A stretch of DNA of 64,000 bases, taken from the NCBI GenBank assembly GCA_000004985.1, contig GG738900.1; one strand, 5' to 3'. This document shows positions 8,252 to 29,823 of the stretch, one piece after another. The stretch is from Naegleria gruberi. Lineage: Eukaryota. Below the pieces are notes generated by a model. It was not told where the DNA came from. It saw only the letters and a list, made by a program, of their open reading frames with translations, and made no database searches. How positions within the stretch are numbered: position 1 is the stretch's first letter; each line of letters starts with the position of its first letter. The position numbers were made by a program, and so were the translations under genes.

Positions 8252-8449
8252 TTTACGTTTCTTAGAGATCAAAACATCTTACATGAAATCCTTGATATTT
8301 TTCTGTAGGCTCCATATTTATTTAGTTTAGATTGATAAGCTTTTAACGTCATGTGCCACATCATTCTTTCATAATTTTATTCAATGGGATCTATTAAATC
8401 CAAATAATAACTATGTAATAGTTACAATAAAAAAATTAAATATTAAAAA

Positions 8450-9343
8450 ATGTCATCACAGTGTGATGATTTAACTCTTCCGAATAATCAAACCAATAAA
8501 ACATTAAAAGGTTATCAATCTAAACTAAATAAATTACAAACAATTACATATAGTGATTTATTTGGATCCAATGATTATATTAACGGTTCAATTATTTGCA
8601 TTTATTCTGATAATATTAATTATTTAATTTTAATTTTATCTAAAGATGTTAATACTATTCATGTTTTAAAATTTAATTTTGATCCAATTCATAAATTAAT
8701 CACAAATAAGGAAATATTTACTAAATATGCATTGAAACAGGATGTTAAACATTATCAATATTTTTATTCATTGAAATGTGAAAAATGTTTTTTAATTGCA
8801 AATATAATTAATATTCATTTATCAGAATTATGGAAAGTTGAAATTGAAAGTGGAAATATAATTTGGAGAAAGGAAATTCATGGAATTAATTCAATTGTTC
8901 AAGATGAAAGAGGAATTTTATTTTTAAATTCAAGTATTACTAAAAATGTGCAATTATTAGATTCCAAAACAGGAAATTGTCTTGGTAAAATTTCAATTGC
9001 ATCTGGTCATAGAATTTCAAATCATATTGGATTGGATTTTAATAATAATTTACTAGTTTCTAGTTTTACTAGGAGAGGATCATATTTACAAATTATTTCT
9101 AAAAAAGGCAACATTTCAAAAATAATACCATGTACACAAAATACGATACTCACACTATCAGATCCATATTATAAGAAAACATTTATACTAGAATCAGGAA
9201 ATCATGTTGTGGATGTTTATGATTCTGAATATACTAAATTAGAAGTATTGAATTTCACTTCACCAATTTTTTTATTTGCTTTTGTAAATGATTGTAATTT
9301 TATAATAACAGTTGGTCCTAGGGAAATATCTTTATTTGATTGA
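8450..9343 (+). CDS. Hypothetical 297-aa protein (copy A, intact)
   Basis: Long ORF with typical codon usage. Paralogous copy at 16521..17400. Confidence 0.45.
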   Translation: MSSQCDDLTLPNNQTNKTLKGYQSKLNKLQTITYSDLFGSNDYINGSIICIYSDNINYLILILSKDVNTIHVLKFNFDPIHKLITNKEIFTKYALKQDVKHYQYFYSLKCEKCFLIANIINIHLSELWKVEIESGNIIWRKEIHGINSIVQDERGILFLNSSITKNVQLLDSKTGNCLGKISIASGHRISNHIGLDFNNNLLVSSFTRRGSYLQIISKKGNISKIIPCTQNTILTLSDPYYKKTFILESGNHVVDVYDSEYTKLEVLNFTSPIFLFAFVNDCNFIITVGPREISLFD

Positions 9344-9399
9344 AAATCAATAAACAAGAAGAAACCAACACTCTTGCTTATAAAGATTACATCAAACTG

Positions 9400-9642
9400 A
9401 GGATCATCATTAATAAGCTTATTTCTTTGATTTTACTCCAAAATAAGTGGCAATCAAACCACTTGCAGCAGTTAATCCAATCAAGGAAAACAACTTGCAT
9501 TCATGTTCTGATAAGAACAGAGTCACCAATGCAATACTGCTCAATATGTTGGCACAAGTACAACCAAAACCAGTTGGCCAACCAACACCTCAATTCCACT
9601 GATAGGTAGCTCCGTATATTTCATTTTTTTAATTCAAAACAA
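9400..9642 (-). pseudogene. Degenerate fragment of the 3' part of the small membrane-protein gene (19715..20062)
   Basis: About 240 bp aligns to 19681..19925, with 15-16 bp deletions and substitutions. It ends at the N gap. Confidence 0.55.
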
Positions 9643-9692
9643 NNNNNNNNNNNNNNNNNNNNNNNNNNNNNNNNNNNNNNNNNNNNNNNNNN
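9643..9692. other. Assembly gap (50 N)
   Basis: Run of N between the duplication copies. Confidence 0.99.
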
Positions 9693-10146
9693 GAATTTCA
9701 ATTCATTATTTAAAATTATTAAATTTGTAAATCAAGATTCAATTTATTTATTTATTAAATTTATTTATAAATTAATTAATGATAATAATTATGAATTAAA
9801 TATTATTAGAATTGTAACATTATTATATTATCAATATCAATATTATAATGATTTAAGATTTTTAGAAGGTTTAAATAGAATTATTATTTTAATTATAATT
9901 GGAAAGGAAGATTATTATGAAAAAATGTTATTGAAAATGCAACAAACTGAAAGAAGTGAATTGGAAAATTATGAAAGATTTTTATTAAATTCACAATTAT
10001 CTATTTTTATTAGAGAAAAATTATTACAACCACTTTCAGATTTGAATGCAATTAATATGATGAGTAGTACACGTAGTATTTTGGAAAATTATATTAATCA
10101 ATTCAATACTGCCACTGCTACTGGTAATCAAAAGAAACGTAAATAA
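9693..10146 (+). CDS. 3' portion of the Asn-rich hypothetical gene (copy B; 5' part lies in the gap)
   Basis: Translation matches the C-terminus of gene 1 (…LLKMQQTERSELENYERFLL…GNQKKRK) with an ATA insertion. Confidence 0.4.
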
Positions 10147-10178
10147 ATTTTACTTTTATATTCAAAATTACATGGGCA

Positions 10179-10538
10179 TTAACAATATTGTTTTTGAAAT
10201 TCCCTCAATAATACATTAACATCATCACTATCTTCCAAGACTAATATGGTCCTCGTTGAAGTTTCCCACAAGCCAGCATAATCCAATTCCTTCCTTTGCT
10301 CTGGATCATAGAAATATGACAATCCATTATCATTAAATTCCTCTCTTAATACTTGAAGTAAAATGCCTTGTTTTGGGTAAACAGCCAATGAAATAGTTCG
10401 TTGGTGCATTCCTCTGATGAATGTTATGTGTTTGTCATCTAAATTTCCTAGTGCACCACTCTTTGAAAATCGTAACGACTTTCGTTTTCTTTCAGTGTGT
10501 GGGACAAAGTCTTTTTCTGTTGATTTTGAGATAAACAT
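10179..10538 (-). CDS. Hypothetical 119-aa protein (copy B)
   Basis: Paralogue of 2189..2548. Confidence 0.45.
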   Translation of the reverse strand: MFISKSTEKDFVPHTERKRKSLRFSKSGALGNLDDKHITFIRGMHQRTISLAVYPKQGILLQVLREEFNDNGLSYFYDPEQRKELDYAGLWETSTRTILVLEDSDDVNVLLREFQKQYC

Positions 10539-10793
10539 TGTTTGAATTGGTTTACTGGTTGGTTTGTTTTTTTGAAGCTAGAAATGAGGCTGGAAAATTC
10601 TTATACGCTAAAATGGTACGAATGACATATTAAAAAGGAAACAAAGCAGGTCAGTAAACCTATCTCTAGTCATGGAGTGTCAACATTGATTGTTCTCATT
10701 TGGAGATAATAAAGTCTCGACAATTCATTTGCAAGAGATACTAATTACATTAGGAAATGTTAAAAAGTCAATCAATTTGATTGAAAATTCATT

Positions 10794-13700
10794 TTATTCT
10801 TCTTTTGATTTAATTATATCATCATTAGAGATATTGATAATAACATTATCATTTGCACTATTAGGCAGCGTATTCATTCCTGTATTACTAGTGGTCGTAG
10901 TATTTGTATTATTTGTATTATTAGTATTATTATTATTTCCATTATTATTATTATTTGTACTACTTGTACCATTATAATATTGTTTTAAGAAATCACCTTG
11001 TTGTTCAGTTTGTGAGAATGCAAATCCACGATAATTAAATTTAGCAACACTTGTAACAGCAGTTTCGAATACCTTCTTAATTTCTTGTAATTCTACGACA
11101 TTGAACTTTTTCTTTTTCTTCATCTTGACAGGTAAACCTTCTTCGAATGGGAAATTTTCCAAAATTTCTTGTCTTGATTTCTTTGATTTCTTTCTTCCTT
11201 GAATTTGGTAATAGGCATTTCTTGAACGCATTCTAACAAATCCTTTCCAGAATATATCTCTAATACAACACATAAATGTTACTAATAAAACAATCATGTA
11301 AAATTGTGGTGTTAGGAATATTCTCCATCTTTCTGTAATTCCATAAAATTCAGATATAACTGGATATGGATATCCAAATATGTAATAAATACTTCCATAA
11401 ACAAATATAAATGCAGGCCATGATAATAAACTTCCAGTATAAATTAAAACATTAACCCATGTCCAAGATGATGTTTCAATACATAATTTAAGTGAAATTA
11501 CAACAAGTACACATGAATAAATGACAATACCAATAGTTTCTGGATCAATATCATGTCCATCAAGGAATTTGCTATCAACCAAACAATAATATGGAACAAA
11601 GAAACAAACAAGTGAATGGAATAATGAATTAACAACCCATGATATAAATACTTTAGCATTGAACTAAAGTATTTTAAAACATTTCATATAATGATGATGA
11701 TTATTTGTTTACATAGAACAATAGAAAAAATATAGTTAATAATTAATAAAATTACTAAATAAATAATAAAAGAAAACTACTTACAAATCTATTCTTTTGA
11801 CCTTGATAATAAAGTTCTGGGAATTTTTCAGCAACATCAGCTGATACATCTCTATCCATAACAGCTAATACAATAATTGGTAAACCAGAGAATATTAAAT
11901 TGTAAAGAGCAATAGTCCACTTATCATGAACAGTTGCACCTGAATAACCATTTGAGAAAATATACCACAATTGTGTTAAATATAAAAGACTATTCTTATA
12001 GAAACAATAGAGAACTAATTTTGAAACTCTTCTATAACTCCATCTACCATGAACAAGTAATAAACGTTTGAGAAATCTAAATTGACCAATTGCATAATCT
12101 GATGCATTCACTGCTTGTAATCCTTCTTGTCCTGAAATACCAATACCAACATGAGCACTTTGAATCATACTCACTATTATTATTTAATTGTTAATATGAT
12201 TAAATATATAATATAATATTAAATATAATATATAATATATAAGATGTGATTAAATATATAAGATTAAATATAAATATGAAAACATACCATCATTACTACC
12301 ATCTCCAATAGCTAAAGTAATACTATCAACATTATTCTTAATTAATAAAACTACATCTGATTTTTGTTTAGGTGAAACTCTACAACAAATAACCGATTTA
12401 CACTTGACACTCAAATTTAAGAATAAATTTCTCAAAGTATTTCCAGTATTAGCTGGATTGAGTGGATTATTATGTTCACCTTCTAAAATGGTTAATAATT
12501 TGTCACCTTCAACAACAAGACCCAATGCATCTGATGAAGAAATACCTTCACATGTTGATAAACTCTTTTCAAGGAAAGTTTTCAATTCTTCAATTGTATT
12601 TCCTTCAACTATTAAAAGTGTCATTCCAGAATTTAATAAATCACATGCAAAACCAATGTTAATAGCAGTTTCTAATTTGTCACCAGTCAATACCCAAATA
12701 TTAATACCTGCTCTTCTTAATTCATAAATTGTATCTCCAACTCCTTGTTGTAATTTATCTTCAATAGCTGTAGCTCCAACAAATTGTAAATTCTTTTCAA
12801 TTTTAGAACCAACCATTTCAACTTTAACTTGACGATTTTCAAGTGAAGTTTTAGCTTCTTCATATTCTCTATGCCATTGTTGATATTCTTCTTCATCGAG
12901 ATAAGCTTGAGCACATAACAATGTTCTCAAACCTTCATTACCAAATTGATCTAAATGTTCCAATGTAATTGGTCCATATTTTTCAACAGATTCTTCATTT
13001 AAAAGTGGATAAATCATTGAATCTGCTCCTTTGGTCATTATTAATAATTTACCTTCTGGATCTCTAACAATGACAGATTGTCTCTTTCTATCACTTGAAA
13101 ATTCAATAATATCTAATACTTGATATTCTATCGCTTCATTTTCCATTATTTTAATAGTAACTGTATTGGTAGTTCTATTAATAAATTCAATACCTAAATA
13201 TTTAGCTGCTTTAACAAGTGCTGCTTCATCAGGTGAAGAAGCTTGATAAATAATTTCATTTGGTTTGTTGTGACTTCTTTCAGGAATAACTGTATGACAA
13301 ACTGCTAACAAGGTAATGAAATTTTGAATATCTTGAGCATTTTCTTCATTCATCCAAGCTCCATCATTCATTCTCTCATCAAAGAATTGGAAATTTGGAT
13401 TATTTTTAACATGTTCAGGTCTATCATCTATAAGCGTAATGCCTTGTCTCTTGGCTGCTACATTGGCAATTTCAGTGATACCTGAACCATATGTTTTACC
13501 AGAAATTGAACATTTCATGACTGTTTTTATGATTGTTGTTGACAAAACAATTGTTATAACACTAATATGATTCAAAAAAAAACTTACAGTCCATCTTATT
13601 TTCAGTTAAAGTACCAGTCTTATCTGAAAAGATGTAATTAATTTGACCCAAATCTTCATTTAAAGCTGAAGATCTAACAAGGGCAGGAGTATCTGTAGCC

Positions 13701-15341
13701 TCATGATACATTGCTAAATCTTGACTAATCATAATACCTTGAACTAATTTAGCTGCTTCAATTGAAACGTAAAGTGAAATTGGAATTAAATTTGTAAGTA
13801 GAATGAGAATTGTCCAATATCCTTTAAATCCATTCCATGCAATATATTCAGAATCAATGACAACATCACGGAATAAATACCATGCTCCAGCATTAAAATT
13901 TGTCCAAACCATCAATGCAATATCACAACTCAAAACTAAAATGATTTGAACTACTAAAACTAGTAAAATTAACTTGTTAATCATTCTTTCAATTTTACTA
14001 ATTTTGTGTGGAGTTTCTCTGTAAAAATATTAAATATATCATTAAATATCATTATTAAATATCATTATATCATTAAATATCATTATATTAATAAGAGTAT
14101 CATGTCATTAAATTTCATAATTGATAATAATAAATATATAAGAATGGTTTAAAATAAAACATACTTTGTGTTCATCATTAATTTAGTATCGTGTCCAGTG
14201 AAAATTGCAACACCAATCATAAAATCAGTATTTTTCAATGAAGATCCACGTAAACAAATTTGTTCAGTATCAATGGATAATTTCTTTCCATTACTCAATA
14301 CCATTGTACCTTCAAATTTATATAATCTATTGTTTGGTTTTTCACATTCCACAATCATTCTAGTTTTATCAAGTGCTTCAGGTGTTGAAAGTTCCAAAGT
14401 TTCATGACGACATCTCTTAATTTTTAAATTAGTTTCACTTTATATCCAAATTAATATCCAAATTAATATGAATTCAATTGATTTTCCAATTTCCAATTTA
14501 ATAAAATCAACAAGTTAATCAACATTCAATCCATAGAAATAACATACCCATCCAAACTTGAAGTTTCAACATAACATAAACCTTGTGATTCACTTGAAGA
14601 AACAAGAATTAAATCACAAGGAAATGGTTCCTTATTATCTACTTTAACAATATCACCTGTTTTTACATCTTTCCAAAATATATCCTCAAATTTGTCACCT
14701 CTCAAAACATGAGCAATTCTATTATTTGTAACTCTATCAGAATAGAGTCTTTTAATATCTTCATAAGCATCTTTAATCATTGTACAAATCAATACTATTA
14801 ATAGTCATATATTAGATTTTGTTTAGTATAATACCTCCAATATAATACTTACCAAATGCTAAAGGAAAGAATGCTGTAAATTGACCTGTTGGTGACAATG
14901 TTGGAATAGTTTGCAAAACTGCCATAAATAAAAAATCTATTTTCACAAATATTTCATCATCCATTATTCAAATATTGTACAATTATAATATTTCATCATT
15001 CAAATAAGTGATAAATCATTAAAATACTTACAACAATTTGCAAATCTATGAAATTGTTCATATAAATTCTTAAATAAAAAGTTGTAGAAAGTATATTTAG
15101 TAGTCGTTATGGAATTATCAATAAATTTGTTGGTGGCGTTTGACATTTCATCATTTGCAAATAGTAATCTAGTTTTTGTTGCATCATGTTGTTGTTGAAT
15201 ATTAAAAGTATTAAAGGCTCCAACTTCATTCCCAGTAAACATATCCGATATACTTCTATGTTGTGTTGATGGATTATTAGTACTATTATAATTAGTATTA
15301 ATTGTTGCAGAACTCATAATAGCAGTACTAGAATTTGACAT
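10794..15341 (-). CDS. Phospholipid-transporting P4-type ATPase (flippase), copy B, complete, at least 7 exons
   Basis: Exons at 15000..15341, ~14848..14930, 14526..14792, 14149..14397, 13562..13984, 12250..13575, 11755..12174 and 10794..11650. Motifs DKTGTLT, TGDKLETA, GDGSNDG and MIQSAHVGIGISGQEG…VHGRWSYRR are present. Confidence 0.85.
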
Positions 15342-16254
15342 TACTAGTGTTGTATGTTCACGAGGTGATGTTAATGATGATGGTAGTGGTAGAGTATTTT
15401 GATTATTTGATGATTCATTCGAATGGTCTACTAGGGAATTTCCATCCCTCTGTTGTTTTGTTATTATTATTATTATATAAAGATGAATATAGTAATATTA
15501 CATATTAAAATTGTTGTGTTTAGAGAATATGAAAATATACATACTGGTGTTCTGGTAAATTTGGCTTTTAATCTTTGAAACATGTTTTAAAGCCTTTTTC
15601 TTCCGAATAAATAATGTTATATGATATACTATTGTAGTTTTTGTGTTGATGATGGAGAGTGTTGATGATGGTGATGATGATAATTGTTTTGAAAACACAA
15701 GAAGAATGGATAATACTATCTACAAGTATAAAAGTGTGTTGTCCTATTCTCTATTCAAAGATAATAAAAACAATCAACAACAATAGTAATGGATAATAAA
15801 TATGTTTTTCAAAGAAGAAGGCTTTGTTTGTTTTTCTTTTAAATAACTACTTGAGTATCAAAGGTGGGAGAATCTTTTGAGCTTCCTTTAATCTTTTGGA
15901 AGCCACGGGCCAAAGTCAAGCGCTCATTTTGAGTCCGATTCAAGTGAGGCAAATAGCGCTAGTTTCTAATAGTCTACAAGAATAAATAGTCATGATACCA
16001 TTTCGGAGTCATTGGAAGGTTTAGAATAAGGGAGGAGGGAAGAATATTCTAATGTAAAAATAAGTCAAAGAACGATTTGGATTTTCAATGTATTGCAATT
16101 TGATAATATATAACTTTCTATTTGAATAATACAAGAAGCTATTAAGGATTGACTTTAAACTCTAAAAAACAAGCGCATTTATTTGCAATTTTTGAAATAT
16201 TAGAAAATTAGAGGAAAGTAACTTTGGGATAGTGTTTTTGAAACAAAAATCAGA

Positions 16255-16328
16255 TACCGACAATGGGGCTCGAACCCACGACCCCAGGATTAGAAGTCCT
16301 GTGCTCTATCCAACTGAGCTATGACGGC
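16255..16328 (-). tRNA. tRNA-Arg (anticodon UCU), copy B, canonical D-stem
   Basis: Same sequence as copy A except G22 restores the C13:G22 pair. Both copies share a T5:T68 acceptor mismatch and a G1:T72 wobble. Confidence 0.65.
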
Positions 16329-16520
16329 TTTACGTTCCTTAAGGATCAAAACATCTTACATGAAATCCTTGATATTTTTCTGTAGGCTCCATTTAGTTTA
16401 GATTGATAAGCTTTTAACGTCATGTGCCACATCATTCTTTCATAATTTTATTCAATGGGATCTATTAAATCCAAATAATAACTATGTAATAGTTACAATA
16501 AAAAAATTAAATAGTAAAAT

Positions 16521-17400
16521 ATGTCATCACAGTGTGATGATTTAACTCTTCCGAATAATCAAACCAATAAAACATTAAAAGGTTATCAATCTAAACTAAA
16601 TAAATTACAAACAATTACAAATAGTGATTTATTTGGATCCAATGATTATATTAACGGTTCAATTATTTGCATTTATTCTGATAATATTAATTATTTAATT
16701 TTAATTTTATCTAAAGATGTTAATACTATTCATGTTTTAAAATTTAATTTTGATCCAATTCATAAATTAATCACAAATATGGAAATATTTACTAAATATG
16801 CATTGAAACAGGATGTTAAACATTATCAATATTTTTATTCATTGAAATGTGAAAAATGTTTTTTAATTGCAAATATAATTAATATTCATTTATCAGAATT
16901 ATGGAAAGTTGAAATTGAAAGTGGAAATATAATTTGGAGAAAGGAAATTCATGGAATTAATTCAATTGTTCAAGATGAAAGAGGAATTTTATTTTTAAAT
17001 TCAAGTATTACTAAAAATGTGCAATTATTAGATTCCAAAACAGGAAATTGTCTTGGTAAAATTTCAATTGCATCTGGTCATAGAATTTCAAATCATATTG
17101 GATTGGATTTTAATAATAATTTACTAGTTTCTAGTTTTACTAGGAGAGGATCATATTTACAAATTATTTCTAAAAAAAGGCAACATTTCAAAAATAATAC
17201 CATGTACACAAAATACGATACTCACACTATCAGATCCATATAATAAGAAAACATTTATACTAGAATCAGGAAATCATGTTGTGGATGTTTATGATTCTGA
17301 ATATACTAAATTAGAAGTATTGAATTTCACTTCACCAATTTTTTTATTTGCTTTTGTAAATGATTGTAATTTTATAATAACAGTTGGTCCTAGGGAAATA
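16521..17400 (+). pseudogene. 297-aa hypothetical gene, copy B, with frameshift in an A-run (~17175) and downstream stop
   Basis: Copy A reads ctaaaaaagg (6 A) but copy B has 7 A. The ORF terminates at 17243 although homology continues to ~17400. Confidence 0.5.
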
Positions 17401-17471
17401 TCTTTATTTGATTAAAATCAATAAAGAAGAAGAAACCAACACTCTTGCTTATAAAGACTACATCAAACTGA

Positions 17472-17531
17472 GGATCATCATTAATAAGCGATCAATTGCT
17501 GATCTTTATTTCTCTGATTTTACTCCAAAAT
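17472..17531. repeat. 60-bp direct repeat, left copy (junction of duplication copy B)
   Basis: Identical to 19681..19740 (ggatcatcattaataagcgatcaattgctgatctttatttctctgattttactccaaaat). Confidence 0.8.
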
Positions 17532-17804
17532 GTATGTGTTATTTGCTCTAGATGCTGATAATTGTTTATAAACCTCTCGCAACTTTTGTTTTTTTTCTAC
17601 ATCCACAGTATCATCGTCTGCCCATCTACAAATTTCAGCTAACCTTTTTTTGGCTGCTTCAGATGCATTATTCACAACCATGCTCTGTGCTTCAACTAAT
17701 TCTTGTTGTAACTTTTTTTCTTTCCTCTCTTTTAGTTCTTTACGTTTGATTCTATAATACTTCTTGCTCAGCGCTTTCTTTGAATAGAGTACCATGGCAC
17801 ACAT
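17520..17804 (-). CDS. Small Lys/Glu-rich coiled-coil protein (hypothetical)
   Basis: Intact ORF of 80-94 aa. No family recognised. Confidence 0.3.
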   Translation of the reverse strand: MCAMVLYSKKALSKKYYRIKRKELKERKEKKLQQELVEAQSMVVNNASEAAKKRLAEICRWADDDTVDVEKKQKLREVYKQLSASRANNTYILE

Positions 17805-17933
17805 TTTATTACAATTTAAAAAGAGACGAGACAGAATAAACTGCTTTAAGATTCACAACTTTTATCAAAATTTCGTGAATTGAAGATGTATTCACAAGGA
17901 AACAAAGTAAACTATCAAATAGCAAAGTAAAAA

Positions 17934-18282
17934 ATGTCCAGAGGTAAACGTACTATTGATAAAACAAAGCTATACAAAGCTATCGGAGCTAGCAATAGAG
18001 GAAATTTTGGTGAATTAGTAAAGAGAAGACACTCCAGAACCAGTTCAATATATCCCAACACTTGAAGATTTGAATAATTTCTTCATTTGTGAAGACTTGG
18101 AGTTTTATTTTGATGTCAAACATGGATTAATCCAAGGTCTAGATGATGATTTTAGGGGAAGTGTAATAAGTAAAACAGAATGCCTTTTGGCTGATAATCT
18201 AAATGTCATTAAGGATGTTATTGATTCAAATTTCCTATTATCCAGCAACATTCCAACTTATTTTAATCAATATTGTTTTTAG
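17934..18282 (+). CDS. Hypothetical small protein; two overlapping frames suggest a +1 frameshift or sequencing error near 18022-18060
   Basis: ATG 17934 frame stops at ~18063. A second frame is open from 18022 to 18282. Confidence 0.2.
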
Positions 18283-19455
18283 TAAAAAATGATTTAAGAA
18301 CTTCATAAGGATCAGAATTTTTGGTATGAATTTGTTTTAAAATTGATTGGAAATTCAACTTATTAAAATTAGTCCAAAAATTTCTAGCTCCCTCTGCTTT
18401 CTTTAATCTGTTCACTGATAATATTTCTATTTTATCTTCATCAAACCAAAAACAAAAAGTTTTTAGCATTGATTCACAATCATACTCTTTCTTGTACGGT
18501 CTTATGAAAGTATTTTGATCCAAAACGCAACCTAAATAATCATCAACACAAAAAGAAATAATACCAGCAAAAAAAGTTGTCTCATTAATTGCACATGCAA
18601 AACCCCAATCAATTAATATCAATTTACCATCATCAGTCCGCATAACATTATCAGGTCTAATATCTCTGTGACAAAATCCTTTTGAATGAATATCTTTTAA
18701 AAGATCTATTAATTGAAAACACTCCCTCCTTTTGGGAAGTTGGATTTGTATAAACTTATTTGATAAAGGATGATATTTCTTCATTATCAAAATCCCATCA
18801 GAAAATAAAGTTGGTTTTGGAATGTTATCTTGATCTTTCAACAATGTATCCAATATTTTGAATTCGTGACTAATAAACCCTAAACTATCTCTATTTTTAC
18901 AAATTTTGGCAACTTTTTCATTATCTGTTCAAAAANNNNNNNNNNNNNNNNNNNNNNNNNNNNNNNNNNNNNNNNNNNNNNNNNNTTACTCAATGAATCA
19001 TAAACAACTCTGAAAATGATAATTGTATCTAATGGAGAGAGTGGAGTTCTAATGTTTGGAATGATTCTATTCTTTACATTTTTAACCCAAAATTTAACAA
19101 TACAGTCCTTAATTATTGAAATACCTGAAGGAACAGAATCTGCACCAAAGCCAATATCTTCAGCCTCAACTTTCATATTTTCATTTGATCTCAACTCTAG
19201 TAACTCCTCAATAGCAGAGGATACTCTTAAAAATATCATTTTGAGACCATCTAATGATTCTTTGGCTGGATTCTCTTTCAATACGTAATCATCTATTGTA
19301 ATTTTGAATTTTTGGAGATGATTAAAATCAATATTTAACCAAGAATTATCTTCATCATCATCGTTTCTACTTTTAACATATTGAATTAAGGATTCCAAAA
19401 TAGCTGAGAAAATGTCAGTTTCATGATAAGCATATGTGTCCGTATCATTCTCCAA
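18263..19455 (-). CDS. Protein-kinase-like / phosphotransferase-fold protein (contains 50-N gap)
   Basis: Catalytic-loop-like HRDIRPDNV and DWGFA (DFG-like) motifs in the 3' ORF. The 5' ORF is contiguous across gap 18936..18985. Confidence 0.45.
18936..18985. other. Assembly gap (50 N)
   Basis: Run of N. Confidence 0.99.
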
Positions 19456-19680
19456 GTAATAAGTAATTTGATTAGGAATAACCTCAAATTAATAAATGAA
19501 CACTGGCACTGTTGCGGTGGGTACTATCTCCAATGGATTACAGTCCAGTGGATGGTCAACTATGTACATATACTTGCATCAAAAGGAGTATTTTCAAACA
19601 TTAAAGATGAAGTATTAATATAAAATAAAGGTTCTTCAGAATTAATATCCTTTGGGTCAATATCTAAACCTTTAGTTTAA

Positions 19681-19740
19681 GGATCATCATTAATAAGCGA
19701 TCAATTGCTGATCTTTATTTCTCTGATTTTACTCCAAAAT
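19681..19740. repeat. 60-bp direct repeat, right copy (overlaps 3' end of the membrane-protein gene)
   Basis: Identical to 17472..17531. Confidence 0.8.
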
Positions 19741-20062
19741 AAGTGGCAATCAAACCACTTGCAGCAGTTAATCCAATCAAGGAAAACAACTTGCTACTAC
19801 TTTCGAATTCATTTTCTGATAAGAACAGAGTCACCAATGCAATACTGCTCAATATGTTGGCACAAGTACAACCAAAACCAGTTGGCCAACCAACACCCCA
19901 ATTCCACTGATAGGCAGCTCCAAAAAATAGACCTAACAATCCACTCGTTATTGGACAAACAATGAATGGAGATAATGTGAAAAATTTACAAGCTAGTAGG
20001 AAGGTTGGAGCCGAGAGTATTAAACCACTTCCCAAACCAAAGGCAAATGCATATGAGGTCAT
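19715..20062 (-). CDS. Small multi-pass membrane protein (115 aa, Gly-rich TM helices; TMEM14-like architecture)
   Basis: Three to four hydrophobic segments with GxxxG-like motifs. Fragments of this gene recur at 9400..9642 and 17472..17531. Confidence 0.45.
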   Translation of the reverse strand: MTSYAFAFGLGSGLILSAPTFLLACKFFTLSPFIVCPITSGLLGLFFGAAYQWNWGVGWPTGFGCTCANILSSIALVTLFLSENEFESSSKLFSLIGLTAASGLIATYFGVKSEK

Positions 20063-20373
20063 TTTTTTATTCTATTCTTACTAATCCTTCCGAAATTTGG
20101 AACTGTGCACACGTTTGTTTTGATGTTACAAACATCGTTATTGAGAACTTCTCAAGAATTTTATCTGAACTTCTCTAAACAATCAAAATAGAAAAAGAGA
20201 CTTTGTTAAATAATTGTACAAATATAACCACACAAGAATTTATTTCGCAATTAATTGCGAGTTCAGTGATCATACGTTGAGCACTGAGGGGTCTGTCTGT
20301 TATGGCATGACAGAGAATTTAGTTTAACTTAGGGGAATGTTGGTTTGGAGTTTGTAATTTCATTCACAAGAAT

Positions 20374-21777
20374 TTACTTCTTGTGTAAAGAATCCAAACA
20401 TTGCTTAAAGTAAGCAGGATCCAATTGAAGAAGTCTAGTGGAAAGCAAATCGAGAGATCTCTTTCTATCACTCTCAGTTAATTTCATGCTAAATCCAACA
20501 AGTTCTTCAACGCAATTCTCAAATTCTTCAAAACTGTTCAAGACAAGATTATTTGAAGGTGGAACTGCGGGTATTGGTTGTGGAGGTTCTTGTGATGAGG
20601 AGGTTGTTGTTGTACGTTTCTTCTTCTTATTTTGTGATGGTTTTCTTGCATAAACTTTAAAAGCGGCTGATCTTAATGTCATGATTGGATTCTCCAAATC
20701 AGATGGGACATAATAATTAATCTGCCAACAAAAGTTAATCTTTTTATGGTGATATGAAACAGTACTAGATTGCACTTTCAAAACACCATTATATTCTTCG
20801 CAAGTAGAAGTTTCCTTATTCTTTGAATTCTTACTTTCAGGTTTTTTAGTTAAAGCAGATTCAACTACACCTTTCAAAACAGGATTTGATTTGTTATCTT
20901 GTTGAATTTCTTCAAAGGTTTGAGAATCGACCATACTAATTCTACCCAGCAAGAATGGTAAATCTTCTTTAACAGTATTCTTATTCAACATTGCTTGTTG
21001 TCTGATTTCATATTTCAAACTAGAATATAGTTTAGTTGGAACTTGTTCACAAGGTTCTTCACATCTAGTTTTACTTGTAATTGAAATTGAAAGTTTACCA
21101 GCAAACTTTTCACTTGTTTGAACAACTTTCCAACTTCTATCACCTTGATTTAGTAAATCAGAACAATTATCATCTTCTTCTTCATCATCACAAATAGATT
21201 CTTCTTCTTCCTTTTTACGTTTTGGAGCTGACTTTCTCTTCTTTTCAGTTTTAACTTGTGTTGTACTTAATGTGTTTGTAACAAGTTTTTTAGCTTTAGG
21301 AAGTGAATTTGTAACATCAGGAACTTGAAGTGTTAAAGATAAATTTGATCTCTTTGATAAAGTTGGTGATTCATCTGAAAGAGGACTTGTATTATTGGAA
21401 GAACTGCAAGAGGATGATGAAAAGTCAAAAGAAATTAATTCAGTATTCGAAGGGCTAAATAAATGAACCATATCTAATAATTGATCATGTTGTTGTTGTT
21501 GATGGTGCTGATGATGGTGGTGATGGTATGATTGAGCAATTTGAGTAGTACTTTCAAGTAAATGATCGAAAACGTCATTGAAATTTCGTTCAAAAGTGCC
21601 ACCTTCATCAATTCTACAGAATGAAGAAGTTGGAGTGTTACCTCTTGATGGAGAGAAGAAGTTAGAGAAGGCAGAAGATGGAGTAAGGAAGAGTGGTGAA
21701 ATGGTATGAATTGAGGAGCTCATGGTTAGTAAATTGGTTGATTGATTGAATGAATTGGAGGTAGTTTGATTAGACAC
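20374..21777 (-). CDS. Low-complexity Ser/His/Gln-rich hypothetical protein
   Basis: 467-aa ORF with poly-H/Q tract and basic patches. No family recognised. Confidence 0.4.
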   Translation of the reverse strand: MSNQTTSNSFNQSTNLLTMSSSIHTISPLFLTPSSAFSNFFSPSRGNTPTSSFCRIDEGGTFERNFNDVFDHLLESTTQIAQSYHHHHHQHHQQQQHDQLLDMVHLFSPSNTELISFDFSSSSCSSSNNTSPLSDESPTLSKRSNLSLTLQVPDVTNSLPKAKKLVTNTLSTTQVKTEKKRKSAPKRKKEEEESICDDEEEDDNCSDLLNQGDRSWKVVQTSEKFAGKLSISITSKTRCEEPCEQVPTKLYSSLKYEIRQQAMLNKNTVKEDLPFLLGRISMVDSQTFEEIQQDNKSNPVLKGVVESALTKKPESKNSKNKETSTCEEYNGVLKVQSSTVSYHHKKINFCWQINYYVPSDLENPIMTLRSAAFKVYARKPSQNKKKKRTTTTSSSQEPPQPIPAVPPSNNLVLNSFEEFENCVEELVGFSMKLTESDRKRSLDLLSTRLLQLDPAYFKQCLDSLHKK

Positions 21778-22655
21778 TTTGTTAGTGGTGGTATTGATAC
21801 TATTATTTGTTGGGATACAATAATCAAATGCTTGATTAGGTAGTGGGATTGGGATTTTGGTAGAGGTAAAAAATTTAGCGATTTTGGGGTTTTTTGTCGT
21901 TGCGACTTTTTTTCTTCGTTTCGTTGATTATTAGCTAGCTTCAATATCGAACTTGATTATTAATAGACTCGTTTTAAAAATAACTCAAAGAGAAAATTTG
22001 TCTTCAGCTTTCAACGCCAAGTACAAGGCTTGTTCCAGCCCGTTACAAAATCTGCGTTGACTGGTCTAAAAATAAAGAACCAATGAAAAATTGAGAGCGC
22101 CAAAAATTGAGTGGACAGGTAAGTAACTGCTCAAACTCGAAATGCCACTTTACAGCAGAAAAAATATTTTCTTTCATTTTCTCTCTGCAGAGCAATATTT
22201 TACAACCAAAATTTTAATTTGGACAAATGCCATTTTCAAACCCATTACTTCTAATATTTTCACAAGCATTTCAAGAATGAGATTTTTTCTGATACAAAGA
22301 AAAAGAAAGAAGCATGTGTGAAATTGGAATGAAAATAGCTGAACAGCATGAAAACATGTGAATAAGGGAGGATTAAATTGTGTGCGGATGAGCTGTGGAG
22401 AGGAGCGAACAACAGCACAGAGGACATTCCAAATACACATGTGTTATCCTCCTAAACAATACACATGTTCACTAATAGTAAGAGATACATCATGTGCGTC
22501 CTTAATATTCCTTATGAGAGTAGTAGTAACATTTTGTCCTCAAAGGATTTTGTGGAAGAGGGAATTGAGTCTCTCTAAATATGAAGCCTTCCAGTTTGTA
22601 TTTGTATCAGAAATTTAACAACTATCGATAAGTATTCCTTAATTTAAGTATATGA

Positions 22656-22775
22656 ATGGCTACGGCCATATCACGATGAATGCACCTCATCCCGTCCGAT
22701 TTGAGAAGTTAAGCATCGTCGAGCCACATCAGTACTGAGGTTGGAGACAACTTGGGAACCTGTGGTGCTGTAGTC
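22656..22775 (+). rRNA. 5S ribosomal RNA gene, copy 1
   Basis: 120 nt. Terminal helix I GGCUACGG/CUGUAGUC. Internal box A AAGTTAAGC. Conserved CAUCCCGUCCGAU and GGUUGGAGACAAC…GGGAAC…GGUGCUGUA. Followed by a TTTTT Pol III terminator. Confidence 0.8.
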
Positions 22776-22953
22776 TTTTTACCTTAATAACTTTTAATAA
22801 CTTGAGTGTTAAAAACTGGAGAAGTTTTCACATTCACTTTAATTTCTCACCAAAACAGACTATCTTTCATGTGAGACATCACAAAAGTACTGTTTTCATA
22901 TTTTTGGAAATTTTCTAAATTGGGAAACCATTGTTTTCATTAATACGAAAAAA

Positions 22954-24055
22954 ATGATTCGAGGAACAAAGAAGATTTTTAAACAAGCCAGTAACAAGAT
23001 TAAATTCTGGTTTCAAGGAAAGACTTTGGACAATTATTTCACCCTGAAAAATCCTCATCATCATGATCAGATTAATGAAATCGAAAGATCAACTGAAGGA
23101 AACACCAAATATTGGATCCAAATTACCTTGTACTATCTGTTGGAGTATTTAATTCCCTTGCTTTGTTTAGCACTCATATTTTCAGTTCTATTTTCTGGAA
23201 TTCCCACTTATTCAGTGCCTTACTTTAGCTTGGACGATCCTGAATTGAGTTATCCAATTATTTTCAACTCGAGTGGTGGAGTTTATGATAATTTGCCACT
23301 GTGGTTTGTTGCTGTGGTGTTAGTGTTTGCAATTCCAGTGTGTACATTTGTGCTTTTTCACTTGTTATTTATGAGGAACTTACCAGACTTTCATCACGCC
23401 ATACTTGGATATATTCAAACTATAGCTCTTGCTATGGCAATGGTGGCATTTGGATGGCTTTGTTACGGATCATACAGACCTACATTTTTACAGGAATGTC
23501 AACCAGACACTTCCAAAAGTGAATCAACAATATCAGACAAGGCACCTCTCCAAAAATTCGTAAATATTCTCAAGTATTTTAAACCGAATCAGATATGCAA
23601 AGATCCTTCCAGATTCACACTTGGTTCACCTTCTGCAACTCCTGGTTTTCCCTCAGGACATATTGCCTCAGTAATGTCTGTTTGGGTCTTCTTTCTATTA
23701 TATTATGCAGCCAAAGCAAATGTAAGTTTCATTTTCAAAATATATATAGTGACCTTTATTAAAGACATGGAACAGAAGAAGAGGACAATTCTTCAAAGTC
23801 ATCCTATTCTTCCTCCTATTTCTGGTACCAGTTTGGGTGGGTATGACGAGAATTGTAACGAATAGACATACTGTAGCTCAGGTCATTGTTGGTGCCTTAA
23901 TTGGCATTTTTTCTGCACTATTAGTTTACAGATACAAGTATTGCTCACTATTTGGTGTTGATGCCAAAACTCCAAATTACTATTTGTGGTATAAATTGTA
24001 TCCTCAAAAGAATCCACAAGTTGAAACTTCCCTCCATCCAAATACCATTCCATAA
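22954..24055 (+). CDS. PAP2-family lipid phosphate phosphatase, 2 exons (22954..23721, 23765..24055; intron 43 nt)
   Basis: Six TM segments. Motifs KxxxxxxRP-like (YGSYRPT), PSGH (FPSGHIAS) and SRx5Hx3D-like (TRIVTNRHTVAQ). GTAAGT donor at 23722. Confidence 0.55.
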
Positions 24056-24147
24056 GATGATGAAAATCCAATAGAAGGATAATTAGGATTATTTATTTCT
24101 ATACTTATTTACAATTAAAATGATAAACTTTGGTCAACTAACTTGGT

Positions 24148-25272
24148 TTAGAAACATTTTCTGCGAACAATTACACAGCCAGCTTCTTCATATTCCTCTG
24201 CTGTTATCCACATGGGTTGAAAGGTAGATAATGAGGATAGAATACTACCACCAATCCAAACAGAATATTTTCTTTCAGGTGGAGCAACAACTTTAATCCT
24301 CGTTGAGGCTGGAGCCATAGCTGCCAATTCCTTATTCATTCTCTCATCAATTCCTCCAAACATGGTTGTACCGCCTGAAAGTACAACATTGACATATAAA
24401 TCCTTTCTAATATCAATATCACATTTTCCAATGGAATTGAAAGTTGTTTCGTGAATACCAGCAGCTTCCATTCCAATAAATTTTGGTTGGAATAATACTT
24501 CTGGACATCTAAATCTCTCGTTACCAACTGTGATAACGTTACCATCTGGTAATTCATAAGAGGCTTCAATGGATGAGCTATCAGATGCTTTCTTCATTTC
24601 AGTTTCAAAATCAAAGGCAACATAACAAAGTTTTTCCTTAATATCTCTGACAATTTCACATTCAGCACTGGTGTTGAAACTGTATCCACGTTCCATCAAG
24701 ATTTTCATCAAGTAATCAGTCAAATCACGACCTGCTAAATCCAATCTCAAAATGGCCTGAGGCAAAGCATAACCTTCATCGATTGGAACAGTATGTGAAA
24801 CACCATCACCTGAATCCAATACAATACCAGTACTTCTACCAGAAGCATACAAGGACAATACAGCTTGAATGGCCACATACATGGCTGGAACTCTAAAGGT
24901 TTCGAACATGATTTGAGTCATCTTCTCACGATTTGCCTTTGGATTCAAAGGAGCTTCAGTCAATAAGACACCATGCTCTTCAGGTCCAACTCTCAATTCA
25001 TTATAGAATGTATGATGCCAAATCTTTTCAATATCATCCCAGTTGGTAATGATTCCATGCTCAATTGGATATTTCAGAGTGATAGTACCCTTCTTGGACA
25101 TGGCTTCATCTCCGACATAGGCATCCTTGTACCTAACACCAACCATAATTGACCTTTGTTTGGGTCTACCAATCAATGATGGGAAAACAGCACGAGGAGC
25201 ATCTTCACCTGCGAAACCTGCTTTACACATTCCAGAACCATTGTCAATAACGAGAGGTCGATGTTCTTCCAT
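24148..25272 (-). CDS. Actin (divergent paralogue, 375 aa)
   Basis: [26 protein letters not shown]…[14 protein letters not shown]…LSGGTTMF…[13 protein letters not shown]. Roughly 80% identity to canonical actin by eye. Confidence 0.9.
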
Positions 25273-25513
25273 TTTGTTTGCAGTATAAACTTGTTTTTGA
25301 GTCTTTTTATATATTGTTTGTGAAAATATCTCAATTGTAAGCTCTGGATTTAGTTTGTCTTCAAATACTAAACCATTGTTCACTGTTCCTTGTCCTCAAC
25401 TTTGAATTACAGTAAAATATTACATCTCATTCTGTTTTAATCTTTATAATTTTCACAGATACATTATTCATGAAGAAGAAAATCAAAGTTTGAATAAGAA
25501 AATCAAAGTTTAA

Positions 25514-26068
25514 TTAAAAGAAAGCAGCAAGAATTAAACCAATCAAAACAGTCAAAGCACTAATTGACAAATTAGCAGCTCCATTACATTGAAGTGAAAT
25601 ACCAAATAAACAACTAGCAGTTTCAATAGGTTGTGATTCTTGAACAGTTGCACAATTCTTATCAGCATATTGAACCCTTTGACTACATCCAATATATTTA
25701 ACAGAACCATAGGTTTGATTATTGACAGGAATACATGTATTGAGAGCAAATGATGATGCAGTAGTAGTAGCTTGCTTACAAGAAATATCAGAATAAGTAG
25801 TAATCATATAATATCCATTACTTGGTGAAGTTGGAATGGAATTGATACATTCAGTTTTAACACTGTATCCTTCAACACCATTGGAAGCACCTAAACATCC
25901 AGTTGTTGCACAAATACCAATAGCAAGTGTATAAATATTGGCAACATTTTGGGAGGAGGAACAAGTAGTACCACGATAAGTGGCATATGATTGGACAGAT
26001 TGACCTTGTGTGAAACAAATGAGAGCAAGCATAACAGCTGCAATGAGAAGGAATTGACGGTTCATCAT
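25514..26068 (-). CDS. Secreted Cys-rich surface protein with probable GPI anchor (ponticulin-like)
   Basis: N-terminal signal peptide. About 12 Cys. C-terminal hydrophobic tail after a small-residue omega-like site (NGAANLS…). Confidence 0.45.
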   Translation of the reverse strand: MMNRQFLLIAAVMLALICFTQGQSVQSYATYRGTTCSSSQNVANIYTLAIGICATTGCLGASNGVEGYSVKTECINSIPTSPSNGYYMITTYSDISCKQATTTASSFALNTCIPVNNQTYGSVKYIGCSQRVQYADKNCATVQESQPIETASCLFGISLQCNGAANLSISALTVLIGLILAAFF

Positions 26069-26763
26069 TATTGTTATCTAGACGTTTTTTTTAACGAGTG
26101 TGTGAAATCTAGTTGAAATCTTGCAAGCTTTATTTCCTTGTGATTGGTGTGACATTTCTAAATGTTTACTAAATAGCATCAAATGTCGATATGGTTGATA
26201 CATTGTAAAAAAGTATGAAACACCTCTTACGCATAGCGGGATTATAATTGTAGACTATTTATTCCCCTCTTTTTACAATTATGAAAGATTTTATTGACTT
26301 CTAGATAAAATTTGTTTCCTCAATAGAAATCACAATAAAACAGAAATCCTAACAATACAAATTTTTTTAAATCAAATATCCAAAAATTGATTAGCCTTAA
26401 CAATACTATTCATCTCAAAAATAGAAGACACATATTTCTGAGGCCAAACGATCCAAAATACTTGTTGTGGACTATTCTAATTAGCTCTACACCTCAATAC
26501 TTGAAATGCATTGTGTTAACATGTTTTTCACTTAGATAGGTTAGCCAGTGAAGTGTTGGGAATGATAGTCAACTACATCTGGTTCAAAAACATCAATGTT
26601 TATTCATGTATTCTTATCCATTCACTTCAATACAGAGCCAATATTTCACGTCACTTATCAACATCACATCCAAAAATTATCGATCAAAAAAATAACCATC
26701 ACATCTCTGCCTTCATCAAGTACACACTTTTTTAACAACAACAGTAGCAAACAAAAGTAAATA

Positions 26764-28875
26764 ATGAATCAAATAGAAGCAGGGTTAGAACCAAGTACCT
26801 CATCAAATCTTGGACCAAAAGGAATTGAACGTTTAGAAACAGATTTTACCGAAATTAAACGAATCACTGATCCATCACAAATTCGTGAAAGAAGAGAAAA
26901 AGAAGGTAAAGAACAAGAACGTTTATCAAAATTTGAACTCTCCTTTCAACTTCAACCATTTTATGGTAATGAAATTCCTGAAGATCACCTGATTCAAATA
27001 ATTGTTGCTGAATATAATTATAGTTTAAAGAAATATTCAATTATTGGAACAACAGAATGTATGAAACAAATTTATTGTGAGAATAAGGAGGAACGTATCA
27101 TGTTGGGTGATTATAATTTTGTTAAACCAATTTCTAGAACTTTTCAATTTGGTTGCGTTCAGAAAATGAAAATTTTCATTCGTTTTGTTTCACCTAAAGA
27201 TGCAAAACAATTAACTTCACAATCACAATCATTTTCACAAAGTTTTTACAAGTACAATAATCAAATGGGTTCATCACATAATGTACTAGTTGAAAATGAT
27301 GAATCAGAATCTTCAAGTAATTTATTTGGAATTCCAAATCAAAAATATGAACTAGTAGAAGAATCTGATGCAAGAATTGTAATGGAATCTGATGAATTTA
27401 CCATTGCTGATTTATTAATGACAGTTCCACACACTGGAATGTCAACTCGTGAAATGATGGATTTTAGAACTCATGCTCGTGTTATTCAATTCTCTAAACT
27501 TCATAATAATTTTATAATTGATAAGAAGAAATCCGATGTTTCATTGGATTCAAAACTTCCACGTGTTATTGTTTCATTGATAACACCAGCTCCTCGTGAA
27601 CATATTGTTGAGAGAGAAACAACTGAATCTGGTACTCAAATTATTTTGAAGAATATTTCTGAATATGGTGAAGTTGAATCAAAGAGAATGTCAATTACTC
27701 TTCGTCTTCAAATTAGAGATGCTCCAATTCTTGATAGATTCTCTTCAAGTTGTTCTCCTTATTTTATTGTTTATAAGGATGGTGTTAAATTTAAACAAAG
27801 ATTATACACAAGTGAAATTAAGAAGAAATCTCCAAATTCTACCTATAGAGTTTTCTCATTTGGTTTGGAAGGTGAAAGATCTCTCGATAAGTCCATGTTA
27901 ATTGAATGGTGGCATTTTAATGAGTTTGGAAAGAATGAATTCATTGGTATTGTTCGTACTGATATTTTAGATATGAGAGAACATCAAACTTGTGAATTTA
28001 AAATTGTTAACCCAGATACTCCAAATGCTTTCCGTGGTACAATGCATGTTTTGAAATATGAAGAAAGAATTTGGATGATTGAGGATGTTAATCAAAAATT
28101 CAAATCTAAAAAGACTGGTGAAATGAAAATTCAATCCTATCGCTTATTTAAGAATGATTTCTCAATTATGAATTATTTGGGTTATTATGAAATGAGATTG
28201 TGTTTTGGTATTGATTTAACCTCAACAAATGGTATTCAACCAACTTCAAACAAGCGTTCTCTCCATTACATTGGTGCTACGAGTGAAGAGAGAAAATCTC
28301 CAAATCCACTCAATCCATATGAGAAATGTATGGTTGGTATTATGCGTGCAGTTTATCAATATGGTTATCAACGCGAAATGAAAATGTATGGTTTTGGTGC
28401 TCTAGCTCCAAATGTTGTCTTTGAAATGCAAGAGAAGAAACGTGTTGCTCGTGAATCAGGCATTCGTGATGAAAAGACCATGCTCCACACCTATCGTAGA
28501 ACTGTAAAGAAGGTTCTCTTGGGATTGGAAAATAATTTTACCAAAATTATTGCTGAAGTTGCTGCTTTTGCTGAACGTTTGAATCACTACTTTATCTGCG
28601 TTATTATTACAGATGGTGATGAAGGTATCAATAGAAAGTTAACATTACAACTCTTGAAACAATCACAACTCTGTGGTGTTTCGTTTGTATTTGTTGGAGT
28701 TGGTAACAAGTCTCTATTCAAGAATTTGATGAGCTTCCAAACCAATTGTCGTAACGTAACTTTTGTCAAGTATAATGATAATATGGAATTGAATGCCATG
28801 AATGCTCTCAGAGAAGTTCAACAACATGCCAGAGAATATTTGGCACAAAGAAAAATTGTACCAGAAGAGTACTAA
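26764..28875 (+). CDS. Copine-family protein (C2 domain plus vWA-like A domain)
   Basis: Copine A-domain signatures SLHYIG…MYGFGA and IITDGDEG…VGVG. C2-like region upstream. Confidence 0.65.
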   Translation: MNQIEAGLEPSTSSNLGPKGIERLETDFTEIKRITDPSQIRERREKEGKEQERLSKFELSFQLQPFYGNEIPEDHLIQIIVAEYNYSLKKYSIIGTTECMKQIYCENKEERIMLGDYNFVKPISRTFQFGCVQKMKIFIRFVSPKDAKQLTSQSQSFSQSFYKYNNQMGSSHNVLVENDESESSSNLFGIPNQKYELVEESDARIVMESDEFTIADLLMTVPHTGMSTREMMDFRTHARVIQFSKLHNNFIIDKKKSDVSLDSKLPRVIVSLITPAPREHIVERETTESGTQIILKNISEYGEVESKRMSITLRLQIRDAPILDRFSSSCSPYFIVYKDGVKFKQRLYTSEIKKKSPNSTYRVFSFGLEGERSLDKSMLIEWWHFNEFGKNEFIGIVRTDILDMREHQTCEFKIVNPDTPNAFRGTMHVLKYEERIWMIEDVNQKFKSKKTGEMKIQSYRLFKNDFSIMNYLGYYEMRLCFGIDLTSTNGIQPTSNKRSLHYIGATSEERKSPNPLNPYEKCMVGIMRAVYQYGYQREMKMYGFGALAPNVVFEMQEKKRVARESGIRDEKTMLHTYRRTVKKVLLGLENNFTKIIAEVAAFAERLNHYFICVIITDGDEGINRKLTLQLLKQSQLCGVSFVFVGVGNKSLFKNLMSFQTNCRNVTFVKYNDNMELNAMNALREVQQHAREYLAQRKIVPEEY

Positions 28876-28932
28876 ATCCTCAATATCAATATCACCAATA
28901 AAATCATTTGTCTTGTGAAAGCTCATCTCTGG

Positions 28933-29823
28933 CTACTCTTTCAATTTGCCCTTGGTTAAATCTTGATTTTCTTCTTCAATATTTTGAACTCTGTGAATTT
29001 GATTGATAATTCTGGAGGCCAGTTGTGGAGAGGCTTTATGCAAAACATATTCGAAAATTCTGTGAGTTTCTTTAAGTGTTGTAATTCTTTCCTTTTGTTT
29101 TTCAATTGTTGTTTGTTGATCCTTAATTTGATTTTCATATTTTGAAATTGTTTCATTGAGTTGTGCAATTTCACCATCTTTCTTCTCCATATCATGCTTT
29201 AAATTTTCAACATTTTTCTGTGTATCTTGTAATGCTTGTTCCAAATTTTGAATTCTATTCCTACAGGTATCAATAGTTTTTTCGCATATTTGAATTTCTT
29301 CAGTTGCCAAATTCAAATTTCTTGATTGTACCAAATATTGAGCCTCAAAATGTTCTTTCTGTTTACTTAATTCGATGTTATGCCTTGAAGCAGCTCTTGA
29401 TATTTCAATTTCATTGTTTAATCTTTCCGAAGCAATATGTAAATCATGTTGTCTTTGTCTTGAAATATGTTCCAATTGATAAATTCTCTCATTCATCATT
29501 GATTGTGTTTTTGATTCAAAAATAGATGAAACTCCATAACTGAACAAAGCTCCAACAATGAATGATAATACTCCAGTGGCTCCAATCACATTTATATGTT
29601 TCAAACACCATGGTTGATCGGATTTTTCATCATTTGACTGAATTGATCCTTCCTCTCCATTATTTTTCTCTCCATTAATTTCCTCTAAATTATTCTCTCC
29701 ATTATTTTCAATAATATTTTCATTGGTTGTATCTTCTTCCTTCAAATTTCCATCACTTGTACCTTCTCCGAATGAAGAAACATCTTCAAAGCCTAAAGAT
29801 GACGACAAGGAATCGTCAGCCAT
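28933..29823 (-). CDS. Type II membrane coiled-coil protein (hypothetical)
   Basis: Acidic N-terminus, single TM (VIGATGVLSFIVGALFSYGV), long heptad-rich C-terminus. Confidence 0.4.
   Translation of the reverse strand: MADDSLSSSLGFEDVSSFGEGTSDGNLKEEDTTNENIIENNGENNLEEINGEKNNGEEGSIQSNDEKSDQPWCLKHINVIGATGVLSFIVGALFSYGVSSIFESKTQSMMNERIYQLEHISRQRQHDLHIASERLNNEIEISRAASRHNIELSKQKEHFEAQYLVQSRNLNLATEEIQICEKTIDTCRNRIQNLEQALQDTQKNVENLKHDMEKKDGEIAQLNETISKYENQIKDQQTTIEKQKERITTLKETHRIFEYVLHKASPQLASRIINQIHRVQNIEEENQDLTKGKLKE

Follow-up and report, generated by a model that had tools for sequence, protein, structure and literature searches.

We have found that a gene-bearing segment of DNA in the free-living amoeba Naegleria gruberi is flanked by two identical copies of an unusually long direct repeat, and that the same locus exists elsewhere with a single copy of the repeat and no segment. 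The locus lies in a 64,000-nucleotide stretch of contig GG738900.1 (assembly GCA_000004985.1), referred to here as the window, in which five open reading frames (ORFs) are exact matches to predicted proteins of N. gruberi NEG-M (EFC39309, EFC39310, EFC39311, EFC39317 and EFC39322). The window has a GC content of 31% and contains five runs of N (661; 3935-6129; 9643-9692; 18936-18985; 32846-32914); it is a draft Sanger scaffold of a eukaryote, and Naegleria is described in the literature as mainly a heterozygous diploid (PMC9928731). From left to right, the locus consists of a gene that we call Y (16521-17415, plus strand), the left copy of the repeat, r (17471-17531), the segment itself, block K (17532-19679), the right copy of r (19680-19740), and a gene that we call M (19715-20062, minus strand), which is convergent with Y and encodes an intact, hydrophobic protein of 115 aa, a candidate small membrane protein.

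The two copies of r are identical (100%) over 61 bp, one more than the 60 bp given in an initial annotation of this DNA, which had otherwise recognised the perfect repeat correctly. The first bases beyond r differ at both ends of both copies, and the inner flanks of the two are non-homologous DNA. At up to 3 mismatches r is found twice in the whole window, as against no match in 100 shuffles. It is made up of 35 nt of the 90-bp spacer between Y and M, whose near edge is the Y stop codon at 17413-17415, and the final 26 nt of the M coding sequence (7 codons, 2 nt and the stop). The right copy is continuous with the intact gene M and, as had been noted from the start, overlaps its 3' end; the left copy holds a piece of the 3' end of M that is cut off from M. 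No significant hairpin is predicted in r (z = -0.7), and its core has no match in the JGI metagenomes.

As assembled, K measures 2148 nt, of which 50 are the N of a scaffold gap (18936-18985). For comparison with a second genome we used ENA metagenome assembly ERZ929261 (run ERR1078381, project PRJEB11402), three contigs of which (L001, L002 and L003) are relevant here; although labelled "metagenome", it contains an N. gruberi-like genome in short contigs that are 98-99% identical to NEG-M. Positions 713-1351 of L002, a contig of 1351 bp, match window positions 18935-18298 at 99.1%, and positions 1-712 have no match in the window at either the DNA or the protein level. Because these 712 bp enter the gap, without arriving at its far side, the gap conceals no fewer than 712 bp. 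K must therefore be 2.8 kb long or more (2.9 kb or more if one copy of r is counted in), and the earlier description of a 2.1-kb block does not hold.

Four ORFs are carried by K. At its left end is a lysine-rich, coiled-coil-like ORF of 94 aa (17520-17804, minus strand), whose final 4 codons and stop fall within the left r, so that this copy of r now provides the stop codon of a K ORF. It is followed by a small ORF split by a frameshift into parts of 43 aa and 70 aa (17934-18282, plus strand), and then by the 3' two-thirds of a gene with a predicted nuclease-fold domain and a kinase domain (18263-18935, minus strand), the 5' part of which falls in the gap, together with the nuclease-fold domain and glycine-rich (P-) loop that it encodes. 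At the right end, an orphan ORF of at least 158 aa (18986-19455, minus strand) is open into the gap. The three genes originally placed between the repeats are thus all present in kind (coiled-coil, frameshifted and kinase-like), but what was taken for one kinase-like gene is two ORFs. A combined query of Y with the coiled-coil ORF and the small ORFs returned no homologs, in a search that the word filter may have limited.

K is missing from two other versions of the locus, each with one copy of the repeat. The first is contig L003 (729 bp) of ERZ929261, which contains the 3' end of Y, a single complete r and all of M, and extends as far as window position 20161. It is colinear from end to end with 17230-17531 plus 19741-20161, with few substitutions and small indels, and is 98% identical. 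The second lies in the window itself, in copy A of an 8-kb duplicated unit whose copy B contains the Y gene next to K. In copy A the order is Y-r'-M', with a single r' (9400-9444) that differs from r by a 16-bp deletion (GATCAATTGCTGATCT) and one substitution. M' (9419-9613, minus strand) is the 3' 195 nt of M only, from which 12 bp have been deleted and in which 3 further substitutions have occurred, including a change of W to an in-frame stop. Set against L003, copy A alone has lost 16 bp of r', 12 bp of M' and everything in M upstream of 9613, and it alone has the W-to-stop change. Beyond M' there is a 29-nt AT-rich tail (9614-9642) that stops at the contig end, is not derived from M and has no match in the window, including 1-1712; the idea that it is the start of the duplicated unit was rejected, as 198 of 300 shuffles score equally well. 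The initial annotation had described 9400-9642 as a decayed version, of about 240 bp, of the M gene, which is correct for r' and M' and incorrect for this tail.

With two single-r versions (L003 and copy A) and one two-r version, the arrangement r-K-r is the filled state of a presence/absence structural variant, and the suggestion that the repeats mark a site at which the block was inserted or deleted is borne out by two independent empty sites with one repeat copy each. Copy A is a K-free version of the locus, and an independent one, whichever way the 8-kb duplication arose. What we read directly from the assembled sequences is how the filled and empty states are arranged, where exactly their boundaries lie and which genes they contain; that K was inserted rather than deleted, and whether it arrived through a staggered break with fill-in or through template switching, we infer.

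The assembled portion of the nuclease-fold and kinase gene contains the motifs HRDIRPDN and DWG and matches Pfam Pkinase (3.6e-9), and its restriction-endonuclease-fold domain corresponds to DUF6826. A search with the kinase part together with ORF 18986-19455 returned one protein, P0006 (315 aa), which is located on L002, is 97% identical and aligns with the kinase part only. The closest named homolog, KAL9653581 of Willaertia magna (62%), is encoded by a single exon, aligns to P0006 from residue 1 and runs on through the C-terminal part present in the window. Judged from that alignment, the K gene would encode about 400 aa and end well short of the upstream ORF 18986-19455. That ORF had been taken for the start of the kinase gene, a role now ruled out by this single-exon start and by its being unlike every member of the family; it has no homolog in the databases searched and no family match in Pfam, and bears no likeness to the kinase family.

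Relatives of the kinase number 2611 at E <= 1e-3 and occur in Willaertia, N. fowleri (44% identity), Arcella, the ciliate Muranothrix and metagenomes. Among the roughly 20 best that were looked up there is no annotated N. gruberi protein, and the K kinase has no match in the IMG/VR viral contigs and none at close range in the JGI metagenomes. DUF6826 precedes the kinase domain in 14 of 19 aligned members (Pfam, best E-value 3.7e-36), and one of the 19 has a Crinkler N-terminal header (PF20147). The N-terminal domain has the fold of solved restriction-type nucleases together with the conserved D...PD...(D/E)xK motif that defines the PD-(D/E)xK class, its invariant residues being D12, D31 (in PD) and K61 (in ExK), followed by a GQxxxY helix. 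The kinase domain has the HRDxxxxN catalytic loop, the DFG-equivalent motif and the glycine-rich loop of eukaryote-type kinases. P0006 has no Crinkler or ubiquitin-like N-terminal header, and the Willaertia homolog begins at the nuclease-fold domain.

Restriction endonuclease and kinase domains are included among the C-terminal domains of Crinkler effectors in a statement in PMC12957317, which cites Zhang et al. (2016, NAR). To judge from its predicted domains, the cargo of K is a restriction-endonuclease-fold and protein-kinase gene of Crinkler-effector type that is header-less. It is like the C-terminal modules of Crinkler (CR) effectors in that a DUF6826 nuclease fold is followed by a eukaryote-type kinase and in that one relative has the header; it differs from them in that both the K gene and its Willaertia homolog have no header domain and in that the host of the K gene is a free-living amoeba. 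We note that the Willaertia homolog (L004, JBEGDK010000051.1, 2000-10000) adjoins an 8-kb gene-free and very AT-rich tract, the first 2 kb of which (approximately 2540-3870) contains at least 6 copies of a short palindromic repeat with the core GTATAAATTTATAC, and that paralogous gene fragments lie on L004 at approximately 800-1800 and 13100-13400. The homolog has no flanking repeats comparable to r, and none of the other ORFs of K accompany it.

The DNA of K appears to be native rather than foreign, because its GC content is host-like and the family of its kinase is heterolobosean; the same host-like GC, and nearest relatives in Willaertia and N. fowleri, led us to reject a viral or foreign origin. 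The junctions of K read ...CCAAAAT/GTATGTG... and ...TTTAGTTTA/AGGATC..., with the stroke at the boundary, and neither has an A- or T-run or a poly-A tail. No inverted repeats pair the two ends of K, and no second copy of it is present in the window. Pfam finds kinase-type domains only in the K ORFs, and no transposase, reverse transcriptase or tyrosine or serine recombinase domain, the hidden part being covered as far as L002 extends. On these grounds we rejected a cut-and-paste transposon, since K has neither terminal inverted repeats nor a transposase, nor a further copy in the window. Nor do these features support non-LTR retrotransposition or a retrocopy, for which there is no poly-A at the junctions and no reverse-transcriptase domain, or a site-specific integrative element with r as its att repeats, for which no K ORF encodes a recombinase.

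We consider it probable, at roughly 60%, that K, with a length of 2.9 kb or more, was inserted as a derived change into the spacer between Y and M and the 3' end of M, that this occurred in the NEG-M lineage, that r is the duplicated target, and that the route was a staggered break or a template switch. The state with two copies of r must have been produced from one with a single copy, through duplication, because the left r includes part of the M coding sequence away from its gene. With two versions empty and one filled, the more parsimonious reading is an insertion derived in the NEG-M lineage. In addition, the organism in the metagenome also has the K kinase gene (on L002), yet L003 crosses r unbroken, which suggests that K sits elsewhere in that organism or is polymorphic there, and the combination of the kinase gene with an unbroken Y-r-M contig points to a derived insertion as well.

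In such an insertion, two single-strand breaks on opposite strands, 61 nt apart, would open the chromosome between Y and M; the replicative equivalent would be a template switch with re-entry 61 nt behind the point of departure. A segment of native DNA, K, would be captured between the broken ends, and fill-in of the 61-nt single-stranded stretches would leave one r on each side of it. The right r would stay attached to M, thereby keeping the final 8 codons and the 35 nt downstream, and M is intact because that copy remains joined to it. The left r would be a piece of the 3' end of M that is of no use to M, now serving as the source of a stop codon for a K ORF. Repair of this kind has precedent, in that fill-in of the overhangs of a staggered break duplicates the sequence between the nicks, and templated insertions are also documented (PMC11081867).

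The reverse polarity, in which r-K-r is the older arrangement and K was later removed precisely to give the single-r states of copy A and L003 (through recombination, single-strand annealing or replication slippage between the repeats), seems to us unlikely. Recombination between perfect 61-bp repeats would yield exactly one r, as is seen in both empty sites, and the presence of the K kinase gene in the metagenome organism means that K is not private to NEG-M. Nevertheless, deletion would have to have happened twice, independently and precisely, or else once long ago with K retained, and it would still require an earlier event that duplicated r, given the out-of-context piece of M in the left copy. 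The unbroken passage of L003 through r, in the same sample as the kinase gene, also speaks against it.

Several points weigh against derived insertion as we have set it out. Both K junctions are known from the assembly and not at the level of reads, and the continuity of K across its gap comes from scaffolding, with at least 712 bp missing. We have seen no donor copy of K with which to compare microhomology at the junctions. Polarity is drawn from parsimony, as protein and metagenome searches recovered no outgroup locus, and the identity of the two r copies over 61 bp is uninformative on age at a divergence of about 1%.

Some of these points bear on whether the filled state might be an artefact of assembly, with K or one copy of r misplaced through chimeric clones or the wrong joining of contigs 9693-18935 and 18986-32845, and with Y-r-M as the true state. 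The region is rich in gaps (3935-6129, 9643-9692 and 18936-18985), the two halves of K are joined only via a gap whose stated size of 50 is at least 660 bp too small, and for the right half of K neither the metagenome nor the databases searched yielded a match. The r junctions, however, lie well within contigs, about 1.4 kb and about 0.7 kb from the contig ends, and r is far shorter than a Sanger read. It is also very unlikely that two independent chimeras would end exactly 61 bp apart in one spacer, and L002 confirms that the kinase sequence in the left part of K is DNA of N. gruberi type. We therefore regard an artefact as improbable.

A more provocative account would make K an autonomous or semi-autonomous mobile cassette, in which the cargo's own PD-(D/E)xK nuclease-fold and kinase protein makes a widely staggered cut. 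K would then be a mobile, toxin-type cassette of a header-less Crinkler class that travels, or is carried, from one chromosomal site to another in Naegleria and whose staggered cuts leave 61-bp target duplications and the neighbouring gene intact. In a variant of this account, a circular intermediate of K plus r would undergo Campbell-type recombination with the chromosomal r. Either route would restore the 3' end of the target gene, in the manner of prophages at tRNA genes. The cargo gene does have a restriction-endonuclease fold with conserved catalytic D...PD...ExK residues; the pairing of domains is that of a Crinkler-effector-type module (DUF6826 in 14 of 19 relatives, the header in one); r preserves the 3' end of the target gene; and K is present or absent between close relatives. 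Against this, K has no inverted repeats at its ends and encodes no recognisable recombinase or transposase, the window holds no second copy of it, no close paralog of the kinase appears in the annotated NEG-M proteome, and the Willaertia homolog is without comparable flanking repeats and shares none of the other ORFs of K. To our knowledge, no protein of this nuclease-fold and kinase family has been shown to mobilise DNA. We give this account very little credence; if it were true, a mobile K cassette would parallel, in a eukaryote, the "transposons to toxins" ancestry that has been proposed for such modules.

Returning to derived insertion, its nearest parallels are the fill-in duplications that arise from staggered double-strand breaks or adjacent nicks (Schiml, Fauser & Puchta 2016, as cited in PMC11081867; paired-nickase data in PMC11081867). 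As far as these are described there, they are like r-K-r in that the duplications span tens of bp, equal the distance between the nicks and can have extra DNA between the copies, and in that they require no element-encoded machinery or terminal repeats. The cases described in that source differ in being induced and in having mostly short insertions, whereas r-K-r is natural, contains at least 2.9 kb of gene-bearing DNA and has a mechanism that we infer.

Transposon target-site duplications offer a second comparison. There too, a repeat of the target flanks the insert and one copy is found at the empty site. The fixed target-site duplications of cut-and-paste families are typically about 2-15 bp long; r, at 61 bp, is several times longer, and K has none of the terminal inverted repeats, transposase, reverse transcriptase or poly-A of such elements. 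In Campbell-type integration, with its attL and attR, the repeat likewise contains the 3' end of a target gene, the gene is left intact and excision leaves one copy. K differs in that it sits in a eukaryotic chromosome, with no integrase or recombinase found and no evidence of a circular form.

The 8-kb unit that supplies the second empty site consists of copy A (1706-3933 plus 6130-9418) and copy B (9694-11930 plus 14174-17489), which are 97.8% identical and differ by 42 substitutions (0.76%) and 14 indels over 5.5 kb, a divergence near the substitution difference of about 0.9% from metagenome contig L001. Copy B starts at 9693/9694, the first base past a gap, at the equivalent of 1706, which is in the middle of an ORF (897-2153). 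Copy A stops at that same 50-N gap (9643-9692), so that the junction between the copies lies wholly within it. The proposal that the breakpoints of the rearrangement can be read from three junctions does not survive, because this junction is hidden and copy B begins at a contig start.

It is possible that the two copies may be two haplotypes scaffolded in series: the boundaries of the unit fall at contig ends or N gaps, the identity is 97.8% with indels included, and one copy is fragmentary, in all of which the unit is like the false in-scaffold duplications that unmerged haplotypes produce. It is unlike them in that copy A has a truncated, stop-bearing M' followed by 29 unmatched nt, an unrelated tail, and in that the intact genes are complementary, with Y intact in A and M intact in B. 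This is the pattern expected of a real tandem duplication with its right breakpoint inside M. We also note that a tRNA-Arg(TCT) gene is present in both copies (8178-8251 and 16255-16328, minus strand), and that the one in copy A has the lower Rfam score (59.6 as against 65.2 bits) because of a substitution at 8229.

Of the genes beside the repeat, Y is an intact ORF of 297 aa in copy A (8450-9343, plus strand), and in copy B a single additional A puts it out of frame. This A lies in an A-run, at 17172 compared with 9101 in copy A, and the frameshift may reflect a real pseudogene or a sequencing error. A search with the M protein found a 99%-identical copy in the metagenome (L003), a 55% paralog elsewhere in N. 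gruberi and no others. Exact look-ups of M and of both Y ORFs returned no NEG-M protein entry for the locus, nor did homology searches with the kinase and M, and the sole search that included Y matched nothing. The nuclease-fold and kinase gene, Y and M all appear to be missing from the public N. gruberi protein set.

The window contains other repeats and RNA genes. Three dispersed 5S rRNA genes (22658-22776, plus strand; 42220-42338 and 55856-55974, both minus strand; Rfam 98-105 bits) account for a dispersed repeat of about 150 bp at 96-98% identity in the self-comparison of the window. A direct repeat (37432-37778 and 40900-41289, about 96.6% identical, in two segments, 37432-37550 and 37577-37778) contains a tRNA-Glu(TTC) gene in each copy (37465-37538 and 40933-41006). 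Finally, 47233-49660 is repetitive coding sequence within an ORF of 1270 aa (46977-50789), with many direct repeats of 72-88% identity and a period of about 170 bp.

Taken on its own terms, r-K-r is a structural variant of an ordinary kind; its flanking duplication is of unusual length, and its cargo is moderately interesting. This stretch of the reference scaffold is not safe at face value for gene counts or analyses of duplication, as the junction of the 8-kb unit lies in an N gap and at least 712 bp of K are hidden. The locus nonetheless provides a clean natural case, in a protist, of an insertion that carries genes and is flanked by an exceptionally long duplication (61 bp), for which the empty site has been kept twice. 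It shows that N. gruberi strains or haplotypes differ by whole blocks of genes, here a block that carries an apparently unannotated nuclease-fold and kinase gene of the Crinkler class.

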